DNA from: an uncultured Bacteroidales bacterium
Lineage (GTDB): Bacteria > Bacteroidota > Bacteroidia > Bacteroidales > FEN-979
Length of the DNA stretch: 64,000 bases
Direction of reading: 5' to 3'
Assembly: GCA_903837605.1 (NCBI GenBank)
Contig: CAILVF010000021.1
Coordinates: forward strand, 14,630 to 78,629
Shown here piece after piece: positions 52,155-56,811 of the stretch. The position numbers and the translations under genes are program-made. A model generated the notes under the pieces. The model saw only the letters and a list, made by a program, of their open reading frames with translations, did no database searches and was not told the origin of the DNA. Position 1 is the stretch's first letter, and every line of letters begins with the position of its first letter.

Positions 52155-52442
52155 TCATTTCGGCTGAAGATAGCTATGGAGGGCATCCACATATTTTTCA
52201 AAAGCAGAAATACCGGCGGGGGTGATCCTGCATGTGGTCCTTGGCATCTTTCCTTTGAACGATTTCTCGACACTGATATATCCGGCTTCCCTGAGTTTCT
52301 CGATCTGCACGCTCAGGTTGCCGGCAGTGGAAGCAGTCTTCTCCCGGATAAAGACAAAATCTGCTTCCTCCGTACCTATCAATATGGAAATGACCGCCAG
52401 CCGGAGTTGTGAATGAAGCAGGGGGTCAAGTTCCTTAAACAT
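52155..52442 (-). CDS. Winged-HTH transcriptional regulator (ArsR-like, HTH_34)
   Basis: LDPLLHSQLRLA, F...EKT..T.GNLSVQ..KL..AGYI...K.F.GK.P.T. Confidence 0.9.
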   Translation of the reverse strand: MFKELDPLLHSQLRLAVISILIGTEEADFVFIREKTASTAGNLSVQIEKLREAGYISVEKSFKGKMPRTTCRITPAGISAFEKYVDALHSYLQPK

Positions 52443-53103
52443 TTTTGTACTCCTTCCTGTTCAGCATGTGACCCGGGATCACAAATCCGGCGACAGCCGA
52501 AACACCTAAAACAAATTGCTGAAAATACATGACCCCTGTTTTATGTATGCTGAAAAAGAGGAAAAACGAAGCAAAAAAGCAGATAATCCCACCGATAACA
52601 AGAGGTTTGAACTCATATGCCTTCCCTGAAACAAAAAGCGCAAAACCATAAAGACACAGCATGATTGGAGTTAAAAGGAGCCATTGAAACCAATAGACGA
52701 AGTCATTACCCTCTTTCACCCTGCTGACAAAATAGGAAAGAATTACCGTATCAAGAAGCATTCCAACAACAACAACAAGGACAGATAATGTAAAACCAAT
52801 CCATACCCACCTCATGAGTTTCTCAATATAAGTCATAACCAGCCTTTCATTCTCGCGTTTTTTGATAAGCCAGAAATGAAAGGGTATGCCAAAGAACATG
52901 AGGAACCACAGAAGGTAAGCATCATATGCGGTTTGTTTCGGCAGAATCATTGACAGGATACAAGTCCCAAAACTGATCCCTGCAACCAGGTACCCCCATA
53001 ACAGGAAAATTTTTCCCGTGCCTTTTTCAAGGTTGTTTTTTGCTGTATTGATCATTTGCCCGATCAATTCAAGGCTTTCTTTTTCATTTAATAACTTTTC
53101 CAT
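52435..53103 (-). CDS. Hypothetical integral membrane protein, partner of the wHTH regulator
   Basis: E.ESLELI..MI..., FLLWG, about 6 TM segments, IPG..L; start MEKLL at 53103. Confidence 0.75.
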   Translation of the reverse strand: MEKLLNEKESLELIGQMINTAKNNLEKGTGKIFLLWGYLVAGISFGTCILSMILPKQTAYDAYLLWFLMFFGIPFHFWLIKKRENERLVMTYIEKLMRWVWIGFTLSVLVVVVGMLLDTVILSYFVSRVKEGNDFVYWFQWLLLTPIMLCLYGFALFVSGKAYEFKPLVIGGIICFFASFFLFFSIHKTGVMYFQQFVLGVSAVAGFVIPGHMLNRKEYKNV

Positions 53104-53196
53104 AAAGGTTGTTTTGTTAAATTCCCACATTCATTTTTCTATTAATCCTGAAGCCCGGAAGCGGGATGTTCAGGGTTTCAATTATAATTCACGTTG

Positions 53197-53381: not shown

Positions 53382-53389
53382 TAATTTTG
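53382..53389 (+). promoter_or_regulatory. -7 element TAATTTTG for gatE-gatD
   Basis: TAnnTTTG 32 nt upstream of the gatE ATG. Confidence 0.55.
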
Positions 53390-53421
53390 ACGCTTCTTTG
53401 GAAACTATTCCTCCCTAAAAC

Positions 53422-55386
53422 ATGAAACAACAATTCAACCCTAAGCTCAACTATGAAGAAACCCGTAAAGCTGTCGGGTATGTCGAGCGCAAACAAGCCA
53501 CCCAGGCCGACTATGACCGTATAGGATTCATGTCGGGGCTGGAAGTCCATCAGCAACTGAACACGAAACAGAAACTTTTTTGCCGATGCCCGGCCGGGAT
53601 TTTTCAGAAACCCGACGAGTACAATGCGGAACTTATCCGACATATGAGGCCGACGCTCAGTGAACTTGGAGAATATGACGGCACTGCCCTGATGGAGTTC
53701 AAGACAAGGAAGGAGATCATTTACAGGATATCCAATAAAACTGCCTGTACTTACGACGTTGATGATACTCCCCCGTTTCCTTTGAACAGGGAGGCCCTGA
53801 ATATTGCCATCGGGATCTCGGTACTATCAAAGCTTAAGATAGTAGGGGAGGTTCATATTACGAGAAAGCAATATCTTGACGGAAGCATCCCTACAGGATT
53901 CCAGAGGACGGCGATCATAGGTGTGGAAGGCGAGATCCAGCTGAAGAATAAAAAAGTAAGGCTTATCCAGCTCAGCCTCGAGGAGGATTCATGCAGGGAG
54001 GTATCTGATATAGGGCATGTAAGGATATACCGGACTGACCGTCTTGGGATGCCTTTGATCGAAACGGTGACCTACCCCGACTTTGCAAACCCGGCCGAGG
54101 TTAAAGAAGGTGCTGATTATATCCGTTTCCTGAACAGGAGCACAGGTAAAGTGAGGCAGGGGATAGGTTCCACAAGGGCCGATGTGAATGTAAGCTGCAA
54201 AGGAGGTACAAGGGTTGAGATCAAAGGTGTGGCCCATACTTCATGGATGCCTGAGCTTACACACAATGAAGCCTTCCGCCAGTGGGCCTTGCTCCGGATC
54301 AAAGAACTCTTGCTGAAATCGGTGAAAGACCCTGCTGCCTGGAAGCTGTCTTCAAAAGAAGTCAGCCTGAAAGAGATCAGGATTGAACTGCCGGCTTCTC
54401 ATAAAGCCAATGCCTCGACAAAAATCTGCATCGTCAACCTGCCTATGTTCAGGGGTGTTCTTTCTCATTTTACCCAGCCTGGTAAAATGTTTGCCGATGA
54501 GATCAGCGAGCGCCTCAAGGTAATTGCCTGCATTGAACTGCCGAATATGATACATTCGGAGATGCTTGAAGATATGGCCAGGGATAAGGTCTGGATAAAA
54601 GTAAAGACCCTTCTGGGGAGCAGGGAAGAAGATGCCCAGATAATTTTCTGGGGACCTGAGGCTGATATGAAAACAGCGATTGAGACCATTGAGGAACGCT
54701 GCAGGATGGCGCTGAGCGGTGTGCCGAATGAAACCCGCAAATCATTTGAAGACGGGACGACCATTTTTGAACGGGTGCTGCCGGGTGCCGACCGTATGTA
54801 TCCCGACACGGATTCAGCCCCCATCCCTCTTGAAGATGAGGTTATTGAAGAGCTCAGGAAAGACCTCCCTCCCGATATTTGTGATCGATTCAGCCAGCTC
54901 ACACAATGGGGCGTACCCTCTGATACCTTTACTTTCCTGCTGAAATACAACCTGGTTCCACTGATAGAGAAATGCAACAATGAACTGGGTATCGCACCCA
55001 GGTTCTGTGCAACCCTTCTCGGCCATACCCTGAAGCATCTTCACGGGAAATTCGAGGCTTTGCTCTTATTCCGTAATGATATGATTTTCGAATTGCTTAA
55101 ATATATCAGGAAGCGCGGCCTCGACCTTGCCATAGCGGGCAAGATGCTGAGGGTACTTTACGAACATCCGAAAATGGACTTTGATTCCATCCTGGTTACC
55201 CTGAATTATAAAGAGGTCTCCAGGGACGAGATCCTGGGAAAATTACCATTCCTGGTAAAGAAATACAAGGAAACAAGGCTGTCGGAAGATGATTCGGCGG
55301 GCCATCGCTGGATAATGGGGAGCCTGCACAAACTGGCACTGGGAAATATCTCCCTAAGGGAACTAAACGAACACATACAACTTTAA
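53422..55386 (+). CDS. gatE: Glu-tRNA(Gln) amidotransferase subunit E
   Basis: GLEVHQQL, KLFCRCP, RPTLSELGE.D..AL.EF, DGS..TGFQRT, LEED, DRLG.PLIE, RSTGKVR.G.G..R.DVNVS, RVEIKGV, central insertion domain, GVP.ETR, LPGA.RMYP.TD. Confidence 0.92.
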   Translation: MKQQFNPKLNYEETRKAVGYVERKQATQADYDRIGFMSGLEVHQQLNTKQKLFCRCPAGIFQKPDEYNAELIRHMRPTLSELGEYDGTALMEFKTRKEIIYRISNKTACTYDVDDTPPFPLNREALNIAIGISVLSKLKIVGEVHITRKQYLDGSIPTGFQRTAIIGVEGEIQLKNKKVRLIQLSLEEDSCREVSDIGHVRIYRTDRLGMPLIETVTYPDFANPAEVKEGADYIRFLNRSTGKVRQGIGSTRADVNVSCKGGTRVEIKGVAHTSWMPELTHNEAFRQWALLRIKELLLKSVKDPAAWKLSSKEVSLKEIRIELPASHKANASTKICIVNLPMFRGVLSHFTQPGKMFADEISERLKVIACIELPNMIHSEMLEDMARDKVWIKVKTLLGSREEDAQIIFWGPEADMKTAIETIEERCRMALSGVPNETRKSFEDGTTIFERVLPGADRMYPDTDSAPIPLEDEVIEELRKDLPPDICDRFSQLTQWGVPSDTFTFLLKYNLVPLIEKCNNELGIAPRFCATLLGHTLKHLHGKFEALLLFRNDMIFELLKYIRKRGLDLAIAGKMLRVLYEHPKMDFDSILVTLNYKEVSRDEILGKLPFLVKKYKETRLSEDDSAGHRWIMGSLHKLALGNISLRELNEHIQL

Positions 55387-55425
55387 CTCAAATTTGACCA
55401 TCTCATTTTCTCACAATTAAACAAT

Positions 55426-56811
55426 ATGAGCGAAGATATTTTCCAGGGTTATAAAGGACGTGCATTGGAAGTGATGCAGAAATTCAATGCCCGGGTCTGG
55501 GCTAAGGTGAAAGTCGATACCACCAGGGGTGTTTTTGAAGGCAGCATCCTTCCGAGGGCCGAAAACACTGATGACAAGCACCTTGTCATGAAATTCTTTA
55601 CCGGCTACAACATTGGCATTGATATCGATACGATCACCAATATAACTGAACTTGGATATAAGAAAGCTGTTTATAAAATACCCGAAAAAGAGTTCCCGTA
55701 TTCAAAAGGACTGCCCAGCGTTAAATTGCTTGGCACCGGGGGGACGATTGCTTCAAGGCTGGATTACCGCACAGGGGCCGTTATCCCTGCATTTTCGCCT
55801 GGTGAGTTATACGGGGCAGTGCCTGAATTAGCCGATATATGCAACCTGACAACCGAAAAGATCTTTGCGGTGTTCAGCGAAAACATGGGCCCGGAACAAT
55901 ACAGGAAACTGGCTATCGCAATAGGCGAAGAAATTGAAAAAGGCATACAGGGCATCATTATCGGGCATGGTACGGATACCATGCATTATACCTCGGCTGC
56001 TCTTACATTCATGGTCCAGAATTCACCTATCCCGATTGTCCTTGTTGGTTCCCAGCGTTCCAGTGACCGCCCCAGCTCCGATGCGGCTTTAAACCTTATG
56101 CATGCCGCAACCGCTGCAGGCCATGGCGATATTGCAGAAGTCATGGTATGCATGTTCGGGCCGACTTCTGATGAGTATGGTTTTTTACACAGGGGGACAA
56201 GGGTACGCAAGATGCATTCATCCTACCGTTCTACTTTCCGCACCATAGGGGATACGCCGATTGCAACTGTAAGCCGCAAAGGCGTCGTTCCTATTAAAGA
56301 AGATTATAACCGCCGCCGGAACGACCGCAATGTGAAGATCACACCCGTGTTCGAGGAAAAGGTTGCGATGATCTATTATTATACCAATATGCAGCCCGAC
56401 ATGATTGATTCGCTGATAGATAACGGTTATAAAGGGATTATCATCATAGGTACCGGCCTTGGCCATGTTAACAAACCCCTTTATCCGGCTATTGAAAGAG
56501 CGCGTGAAAAAGGTGTTGCAGTTTATATGACAGTACAAACCCTTTGGGGATATGTAGGGATGTTTGTTTATGATACCGGCCGGGACCTGATGGCCAAAGG
56601 AGTTATCCCTCTTGAAAACATGCTGCCCGAAGTCGCTTATATCAAACTTGGCTGGGCGCTTGGTCAGACCTCCGACCTGGAAGAGGTTAAGAAGATCATG
56701 CTAACCCCTATCAACAGCGATATCACTCCCAGGGAACCGTATAACGGCTACCTGATATACCAGGGCGGTGTGCCTGAGGTGGAAGACTTTATCAGGAAGT
56801 TCCACAAATAA
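55426..56811 (+). CDS. gatD: Glu-tRNA(Gln) amidotransferase subunit D (asparaginase-like glutaminase)
   Basis: GatD-specific N-domain (G...PR.E..DD.H.V.K...GYNIG), GTGGTIASR.DY.TGAV, HGTDTM, GSQRSSDRPSSD, RKMHSS.R, GTGLGH, MLPE.AY.KL.W.LG. Confidence 0.93.
   Translation: MSEDIFQGYKGRALEVMQKFNARVWAKVKVDTTRGVFEGSILPRAENTDDKHLVMKFFTGYNIGIDIDTITNITELGYKKAVYKIPEKEFPYSKGLPSVKLLGTGGTIASRLDYRTGAVIPAFSPGELYGAVPELADICNLTTEKIFAVFSENMGPEQYRKLAIAIGEEIEKGIQGIIIGHGTDTMHYTSAALTFMVQNSPIPIVLVGSQRSSDRPSSDAALNLMHAATAAGHGDIAEVMVCMFGPTSDEYGFLHRGTRVRKMHSSYRSTFRTIGDTPIATVSRKGVVPIKEDYNRRRNDRNVKITPVFEEKVAMIYYYTNMQPDMIDSLIDNGYKGIIIIGTGLGHVNKPLYPAIERAREKGVAVYMTVQTLWGYVGMFVYDTGRDLMAKGVIPLENMLPEVAYIKLGWALGQTSDLEEVKKIMLTPINSDITPREPYNGYLIYQGGVPEVEDFIRKFHK

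Follow-up and report, generated by a model that had tools for sequence, protein, structure and literature searches.

GatDE has been described as an archaeal signature protein (PMC2330236), as exclusive to Archaea (PMC2811023) and, in 2022, as now found in Archaea only (PMC9499178). The A1-U72 pair of tRNA-Gln is given as an identity element for the archaeal enzyme (PMC2330236; PMC9499178), and a division of labour is reported in which archaeal Gln is made via GatDE and Asn via GatCAB (PMC2330236). In bacteria, retention of GatCAB together with AsnRS and GlnRS where there is no Asn synthetase, as in some Bacteroidetes, has been read as a means of making Asn on tRNA, and Thermus, Deinococcus and Bdellovibrio are named as retaining GatCAB for tRNA-dependent asparagine synthesis (PMC4206432). 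These and the other papers cited by PMC number are drawn on for the passages concerned. Here we analyse a gatE-gatD gene pair encoded in a 64,000-nucleotide stretch of DNA (the window) from an uncultured Bacteroidales bacterium (assembly GCA_903837605.1, contig CAILVF010000021.1, positions 14,630 to 78,629 of the forward strand). An earlier annotation made by a model from the sequence alone, hereafter the original prediction, had pointed out this pair and noted that GatDE is regarded as archaea-specific, as the three papers cited first indeed state. Judged from sequence comparison and structure modelling, the locus is very probably a working gatE-gatD operon for a GatDE-type tRNA-dependent amidotransferase, which belongs to a monophyletic, multi-phylum bacterial clade and has been inherited vertically within Bacteroidales. 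In such an enzyme GatD would free ammonia from Gln or Asn, and GatE would phosphorylate, then amidate, the acidic amino acid borne on a tRNA. As to the substrate, we tentatively propose, with a probability of roughly 0.4, that GatDE here makes Asn on tRNA-Asn, in the place that GatCAB holds elsewhere in the phylum. The two genes and the regions of GatE discussed below are as follows.

53422..55386, plus strand: gatE, an open reading frame of 654 amino acids (aa), predicted to encode the tRNA-binding kinase/amidase subunit of a GatDE-type amidotransferase
55426..56811, plus strand: gatD, an open reading frame of 461 aa, predicted to encode the asparaginase-type glutaminase subunit
53422..53505, plus strand: N-terminal extension of GatE (aa 1-28), missing from both solved archaeal GatE chains
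53542..54063, plus strand: catalytic core of GatE, with predicted Mg2+ ligands H43 (in EVHQQ), E187 (in LEED) and E214 (in PLIE)
55054..55383, plus strand: C-terminal helical tail of GatE (aa 545-654), with a remodelled terminal motif

The family identity of both proteins was examined with curated models. GatE passed TIGR00134 (398.8 bits, cut-off 319.55) and fell narrowly under the cut-off of NF003107 (451.9 bits, cut-off 456), whilst models for GatB gave 51-117 bits against cut-offs of 315-680 and failed (TIGR00133: 114.1 bits, cut-off 314.8). The GatE of the window is, by homology, a paralogue of GatB that stands outside the GatB family. GatD scored 506.5 bits with TIGR02153 (cut-off 324) and 506.7 bits with NF003217 (cut-off 310), above the 383 bits obtained with the type I asparaginase subfamily model, and Pfam identified the GatD_N (PF18195, 43.6 bits), Asparaginase and Asparaginase_C domains. 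E-values against the curated models lay between 1e-119 and 1e-152, beyond chance. Comparison by phmmer with chains of solved structure was in agreement, as GatE matched 2d6f_C at 286.9 bits and 1zq1_C at 272.7 bits with GatB chains at 73 bits or less, and GatD matched GatD chains at 404.9 (1zq1_A) and 386.8 bits with the top plain asparaginase in the PDB at 138 bits. Identity of the pair as an ordinary GatB and a type I asparaginase was ruled out by the model scores.

The motifs named in the original prediction were located in both subunits. GatE carries EVHQQ at aa 41-45, DDTPP at 114-118, RKQYLDGSIPTG at 148-159, LEED at 186-189, PLIE at 211-214 and RADVNVS at 252-258, and GatD carries TGGTI at 104-108, HGTDT at 181-185 and RKMH at 261-264, the latter three aligned with both solved GatD chains. 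Residues His15, Glu157 and Glu184, named as the Mg2+ ligands of Methanothermobacter thermautotrophicus GatE in a paper that likewise assigns roles to the Thr nucleophile and the Thr-Asp-Lys residues of GatD (PMC2330236), correspond to H43, E187 and E214 in the phmmer alignment of GatE to 2d6f_C. The AspRS-like insertion domain is kept, the alignments to 2d6f_C and 1zq1_C being unbroken over residues 30-542; the Pfam GAD model had no match on GatE at E<=0.001. Alignments to the PDB chains begin at residues 29-30 of the query, that is, after the N-terminal extension, which is conserved in the Bacteroidales clade and in which a helix is modelled at residues 7-18 (predicted local distance difference test score, pLDDT, of the block 94). 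GatE was modelled with AlphaFold (AF2) from an alignment of 65 rows, and the model was confident over its full length, with a pLDDT of 91.7 and a predicted template modelling score (pTM) of 0.88. Its top fold matches were 1zq1_C and 2d6f, with target-normalised template modelling scores (TM-scores) of 0.80-0.83 (1zq1_C: 515 columns, 0.83), followed by GatB. In the GatE tail, Pfam did not detect GatB_Yqey (PF02637) at E<=0.001 and phmmer alignments to PDB chains stop at about residue 542; the NCBIfam models align up to residues 636-642, and the tail is modelled as helices with a pLDDT of about 90. The pair resembles archaeal GatDE (M. thermautotrophicus 2D6F; P. abyssi 1ZQ1) in having two subunits encoded by adjacent gatD and gatE genes, in the Mg2+ ligands, the AspRS-like insertion and helical domains and the fold of GatE, and in the Thr, Thr-Asp and Lys motifs and GatD_N domain of GatD.

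Relatives of the pair were sought in species-representative genomes, and 295 stretches encoding a relative were found, the best 80 of which were combined with 12 loci from other classes to give 92 clustered loci. Titles of the best 80 of the 295 named Bacteroidota in 78 cases, 'bacterium' only in one and 'Chlorobiota' in one, and contigs of 3.5 and 4.1 Mb were included; MAGs labelled Draconibacterium and Prolixibacteraceae were among these relatives. GatE was encoded in 91 and GatD in 81 of the 92 loci, and the recurring neighbours were envelope genes, namely OstA-like (53/92), MlaD (48/92) and Amidase_3 (46/92). No tRNA or synthetase gene linked to gatED recurred among the 92 loci. The sole tRNA gene seen in the flanks of 56 scanned loci, a tRNA-Asn 5.7 kb downstream of gatE (L070:13637-13711), may be there by chance. 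The stretch itself was present in pond, lake and freshwater metagenome runs of 13 studies, with no RNA run listed among the 20 runs carrying it. Contigs from four of the runs bridged gatE to gatD, and contigs from runs of two studies bridged gatD to the neighbouring ClC gene. Against six close relatives with a synonymous rate (dS) below 2, the ratio of nonsynonymous to synonymous rates (dN/dS) was 0.028-0.064 for gatE and 0.006-0.027 for gatD, equal to or below the values for the flanking ClC (0.029-0.067) and xth (0.026-0.066) genes.

An artefact, in which archaeal DNA had been misassembled or mis-binned or had arrived by very recent transfer from an archaeon, is exceedingly improbable in view of these data. 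Its sole support is that the best curated models carry Archaea names, and it is contradicted by the unremarkable guanine plus cytosine (GC) content across the locus, by dozens of Bacteroidales assemblies in which the pair recurs with the same neighbours, the 3.5 and 4.1 Mb contigs among them, by the independent metagenome contigs that bridge the junctions, by a GatE that clears the cut-off in 22 of the 24 further genomes sampled from the host's family, and by the position of the protein in a bacterial clade with 100 % support (see below). Misassembly and archaeal contamination were ruled out by synteny, independent contigs and clade membership. The original prediction had described both genes as intact with the named catalytic motifs, had considered a chimera unlikely and had counted an extension of about 28 aa at the N-terminus of GatE. 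Model scores, alignments and dN/dS uphold the first of these statements, synteny across related loci and metagenome contigs over the junctions the second, and the start of the structural alignments, together with the conservation and modelled helix of the block, the third.

Distribution was assessed in two genome samples. Among 201 genomes of the order, drawn evenly over 148 family codes, GatE exceeded the cut-off in 91. In a sample of the phylum (n=301) it was found in 13 genomes, one being that of the window and the other 12 'same phylum' genomes from four families, with none in the 67 'same class' or the seven 'same order' genomes of that sample. The 12 carriers from other classes showed 45-50 % identity to the window in GatE and 68-71 % in GatD, and gatE preceded gatD in all 10 of their loci that extend far enough to reveal the gene order. 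Among 1.84 billion cluster representatives, searched exhaustively, 2850 relatives were detected at E<=0.001, of which 600 reached E<=1e-30. When 123 full-length GatE rows were placed in a tree with a midpoint root, a group of 41 containing the query was separated from a group of 82, both sides with 100 % local Shimodaira-Hasegawa (SH)-like support. For a profile of the query group (26 unlabelled members) 120 matches were listed, and the ten organism-named entries among the matches listed were all bacterial (KSB1, Calditrichia, three of Aminicenantes/Aminicenantales, Krumholzibacteria, Latescibacteria, Desulfaltia, a Clostridiales metagenome-assembled genome (MAG) and 'bacterium'). For the group of 82 the same procedure gave 19 organism-named entries among the matches listed, all archaeal, with the labels Asgardarchaeia, Odinarchaeota, Thermoprotei, Methanocaldococcus, Methanotorris, Verstraetearchaeota, Nezhaarchaeales, Bathyarchaeota, Hadesarchaea, Desulfurococcaceae, Thermoproteales and 'archaeon'. 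A bacterial GatDE clade, which the original prediction had envisaged, was thus recovered, and with 91 of 201 genomes of the order and members in several phyla it is far larger than had been supposed.

When eight bacterial GatB sequences served as outgroup, the GatE proteins of bacteria formed a monophyletic clade with 100 % support in the SH-like approximate likelihood ratio test (SH-aLRT) on a stem of 0.31, and within this clade the Bacteroidales branch off along a second long stem (0.49-0.58). On these trees the bacterial GatE clade is of single origin. In a free quick tree its sister was P0164, one unlabelled representative, and contigs bearing 70 %-identical relatives of P0164 encode a uS4 that scored 214 bits with the archaeal model against 48 bits with the bacterial one; this archaeal-type uS4 indicates that the P0164 lineage is archaeal. 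On a metagenome contig of the archaeal lineage that the free tree places closest to the bacterial clade (L137:7436-10935), the neighbouring gatD and gatE genes are transcribed divergently, whilst bacterial loci have co-directional gatE-gatD. When the 30 archaeal rows were constrained together, the resulting tree was better by 47.9 log-likelihood units and was not rejected by the approximately unbiased (AU) test (p-AU 0.885), so that the split may equally well date back as far as the archaeal clade itself. The bacterial clade may be sister to all sampled Archaea or may stand beside one archaeal lineage, in trees where its stem and the GatB outgroup could well be drawn together by long-branch attraction and where MAG labels can be wrong; the transfer from archaea to bacteria that had originally been proposed is accordingly only one possible history of the clade. 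The GatE proteins P0332, P0345 and P0338, labelled Aminicenantes, Desulfaltia and Clostridiales MAG, are almost identical (branch lengths 0.07-0.15), and an 'Aminicenantales'-labelled protein groups with Bacteroidota of other classes. Such near-identity across phylum labels may reflect either recent inter-phylum transfers or mislabelled MAG bins.

The gene complement of the host was then considered in its genome, which is 97.4 % complete. It encodes GlnRS (747 bits), AsnRS (630 bits), one GluRS, two glutamine synthetases and a single AspRS of bacterial type (706 bits), with no archaeal-type AspRS over the cut-off. Searches of the host genome found no GatA, no GatB apart from GatE itself, and no AsnA, AsnB or Asn_synthase domain. 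The glnS, asnS and gatCAB genes had been singled out for checking in the original prediction, as had the 1-72 pair of tRNA-Gln, which proved to be U1-A72 and not the archaeal A1-U72. The acceptor pairs are U1-A72 in tRNA-Gln(UUG), tRNA-Gln(CUG) and tRNA-Asn and G1-C72 in tRNA-Asp, and the identity element of archaeal GatDE is accordingly missing from both credible host tRNA-Gln genes. A further 94-nt 'tRNA-Gln(ttg)' called by ARAGORN (G000:C85:25512-25605) is mismatched in its acceptor stem, has a long extra arm and is probably a false positive. The host GluRS has Arg at the position aligned with Arg358 of Thermus thermophilus GluRS, replacement of which by Gln sufficed for non-discrimination (PMC2978374); from this one residue the enzyme is predicted to be discriminating, and Glu-tRNA(Gln) to be scarce. 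Since GlnRS and AsnRS are both present, this host can charge tRNA-Gln and tRNA-Asn without GatDE. The setting therefore differs from that of archaeal GatDE in the bacterial host with GlnRS and AsnRS, in the U1-A72 pair of tRNA-Gln and in the lack of an archaeal-type non-discriminating GluRS as partner. Elsewhere in the host genome, outside the window, gltX (163986-165476, plus strand), tRNA-Gln(CUG) (168216-168291, minus strand) and glnS (168355-169929, minus strand) lie within 6 kb of one another (G000:C87:163986-169929), with the tRNA-Gln(CUG) gene directly downstream of glnS. A second, plain type I asparaginase-like gene (G000:C93:60046-61077) scored 200.6 bits with the GatD model, below the cut-off, and has one TGA in the match.

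These host data bear on the canonical role, in which the enzyme would act solely as a Glu-tRNA(Gln) amidotransferase beside GlnRS, as a fidelity or back-up device for a GluRS that is not fully discriminating. Both subunits match the equivalog models for that activity, the Glu-specific archaeal enzyme has the same catalytic core and insertion domain, and the weak first pair U1-A72 of tRNA-Gln would suit it. GatDE also stands beside GatCAB in 12 of 12 carriers from other classes, which corresponds to the archaeal division of labour, and in one other-class Bacteroidota genome (G275; L118, G275:C45:508058-512924) a distance of 1.4 kb separates gatE from glnS, which is encoded on the opposite strand. 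In another genome, G448, the distance between glnS and gatE is about 8 kb. This role is nevertheless somewhat unlikely to be the only one, as the host has a GlnRS, its single GluRS bears the Arg358 equivalent that marks discriminating enzymes, its tRNA-Gln lacks the pair read by archaeal GatDE, and neither the anticorrelation with AsnA and AsnB nor the Bacteroidales-specific remodelling of the tail, both described below, would be explained.

The original prediction had asked whether the enzyme adapted to bacterial tRNA or amidates a different substrate, and this question, which is still the pertinent one, is narrowed here by inference. Synthesis of Asn on tRNA-Asn, the reading that we prefer, would proceed as follows. 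The single bacterial-type AspRS of the host would make Asp-tRNA(Asn), which GatDE would turn into Asn-tRNA(Asn), perhaps acting on Glu-tRNA(Gln) as well, and the cell would thereby gain a tRNA-dependent route to asparagine. Recognition would depend on U1-A72, common to host tRNA-Asn and tRNA-Gln, and GatDE would fill the role vacated when Bacteroidales lost GatCAB. We know of no GatDE shown to accept Asp-tRNA(Asn). The arrangement parallels that described for GatCAB in tRNA-dependent Asn synthesis, in that an amidotransferase is kept beside AsnRS and GlnRS where Asn synthetase is missing (PMC4206432), with U1-A72 on tRNA-Asn, and with GatE paralogous to GatB. It differs in that GatDE is of heterodimer type with an asparaginase-type glutaminase, whereas GatCAB has an amidase-type GatA and GatC, and in that the 3-10 turn and the Lys-rich tail motif of GatB are lacking in GatE (PMC2811023).

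Support for this proposal comes from gene distribution. GatB was found in 252 of the 301 genomes of the phylum sample and in 11 of the 201 of the order sample; being general in the phylum and rare in the order, it leaves the niche of an Asp-amidotransferase vacant in Bacteroidales. The order sample was then divided into 92 GatE-positive and 109 GatE-negative genomes, and AsnB was scored with NF006949 (E. coli-type), which replaced PF00733, a proxy that was too broad and also picked paralogues of about 630 aa. AsnA was present in 12 of the 92 GatE-positive against 57 of the 109 GatE-negative genomes, E. coli-type AsnB over the cut-off in 6 against 59, and either of the two in 17 against 77. Genomes with neither AsnA nor a strong PF00733 match numbered 40/92 among the GatE-positive and 22/109 among the GatE-negative. 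In one Bacteroidales genome (G064:C15:40232-41810) the E. coli-type asnB lies in two adjacent pieces (367.5 and 308.2 bits), which suggests a frameshift or a decaying gene.

A number of observations weigh against Asn synthesis on tRNA by this enzyme. Archaeal GatDE is reported to convert Glu-tRNA(Gln) only (PMC2811023), and its GatE insertion domain, retained here, was predicted by modelling to clash with AspRS (PMC2330236). All 12 Bacteroidota carriers from other classes have GatB, GlnRS and AsnRS, so that the ancestral bacterial role was not the filling of a gap, and 8 of the 12 have a PF00733 protein. Within the order, GatE also occurs in 6 of the 11 GatB-positive Bacteroidales, and the 17 GatE-positive genomes with AsnA or AsnB become 52 of the 92 when AsnA or a strong PF00733 protein is counted. 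AsnA, AsnB, GatE and GatB are all missing in 31 of the 201 genomes, and apparent Asn auxotrophy is thus common in the order anyway. Six pairs of genomes of the same family that are discordant for GatE showed compensation in the expected direction in one case, in the opposite direction in one and none in four, an inconsistency which indicates that the anticorrelation is mostly deep-phylogenetic; as related genomes are not independent, Fisher p-values overstate the association of GatE with AsnA and AsnB. The proposal would require a non-discriminating AspRS in the same cell, for which no usable sequence signature was found in the passages of PMC4206432 drawn on here.

The coexistence of GlnRS, AsnRS and GatCAB with GatDE in 12 of 12 carriers from other classes, where no need for GatDE is known, could also point to a different job, such as amidation of another acyl-tRNA or of a substrate other than tRNA, or a part in regulation or nitrogen metabolism apart from supply of the ribosome. 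A Bacteroidales tail that lies beyond Pfam detection and has lost its basic motif, and very strong selection despite apparent redundancy, are in keeping with such a role. It is rather improbable, since all Mg2+ ligands, all glutaminase residues and the whole tRNA-holding four-domain architecture of GatE are kept, and no linked partner gene among the 92 loci hints at another substrate.

Clade-specific changes in GatE were examined for their bearing on tRNA recognition. DDTPPF and RKQYLDGSIPTGFQRT, which set the core apart from that of archaeal GatDE, are signatures of the entire bacterial GatE clade; the altered motifs noticed originally are therefore real, but being clade-wide they are not peculiar to this gene. 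RADVNVS is specific to Bacteroidales, with RQDVNVS in other bacteria and RQDlNiS in Archaea. At the C-terminus, three groups were compared by motif and by median net charge over the last ~35 residues. Archaea have lMG.vMK..RGk.DGk.V and a charge of +5.5, other bacteria lmG..M...lrGr.pg..v and +3, and Bacteroidales RWiMGnL.kl.AlGNiSL and +1. In the window ALGN (aa 639-642) occupies the position of RG[KR] in Archaea and other bacteria, and this loss of the RG[KR] element, like the 28-aa N-terminal extension, distinguishes the protein from archaeal GatE. Reading of the D-loop has been assigned to the GatE tail (PMC2811023). A tail that was remodelled and then fixed, on a long stem and in the one group from which GatCAB was lost, agrees with a switch of tRNA substrate and is no proof of one.

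The remaining features lie upstream of gatE.

53382..53389, plus strand: TAATTTTG motif, 33 nt 5' of the gatE ATG, a possible Bacteroidota -7 promoter element

Position 53382 is the start of this motif and not a start codon, and gatD follows gatE on the same strand after a gap of 39 nt. The motif was regarded as a possible promoter element by reference to TAnnTTTG, which we take to be the Bacteroidota -7 consensus. The pattern TANNTTTG matched the window 49 times, where 44.8 matches would be expected by chance; with a count so close to chance the motif is by itself weak evidence and carries no weight for a promoter, and the Bacteroidota-type promoter of the original prediction did not survive this comparison. 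Between the OstA-like gene and gatE, on the minus strand of the window (52155-53130), lie genes for a 95-aa winged-helix HTH_34 regulator and for a protein of 231 aa in which Pfam had no match. A cluster of open reading frames of about 95 aa, presumed to be the helix-turn-helix regulator, occurred in only 6 of the 92 loci, and the pair accordingly looks like a small local insertion in a conserved neighbourhood.

Existence of a bacterial GatDE clade of single origin means that the premise of a GatDE confined to Archaea is wrong. Evolutionary arguments have been built on an archaea-only GatDE, including its co-evolution with archaeal tRNA-Gln, its use to explain why no archaeon has gained GlnRS and the question of whether LUCA, the last universal common ancestor, had both amidotransferases (PMC2330236; PMC2811023; PMC9499178), and the passages of a bacterial genome survey, PMC3927822, that infer a defunct indirect pathway wherever gatCAB is missing, Bacteroidetes included, never mention GatDE. 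As the original prediction had allowed, homologs are already annotated, pipelines calling these bacterial proteins GatE; no paper describing bacterial GatDE was found in the open-access papers and bioRxiv preprints searched, subscription journals and supplements lying outside the search. The bacterial clade constitutes a natural experiment on how an amidotransferase is adapted to tRNAs whose first base pair differs. A combined and bolder view, that bacterial GatDE is sister to all sampled archaeal GatE and that in Bacteroidales it switched tRNA to become the sole asparagine route and the first GatDE to act on Asp-tRNA(Asn), is unlikely as a whole on present evidence. Were bacterial GatDE sister to all sampled Archaea, its age would equal that of the archaeal lineage, a point that would bear on the presence of GatDE in LUCA. 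If Asn is made on tRNA-Asn by this enzyme, many environmental Bacteroidales would have been wrongly called asparagine auxotrophs in metabolic reconstructions, and if the substrate has switched, the first Asp-tRNA(Asn) GatDE would be present in nearly half of the sampled species of a major bacterial order.

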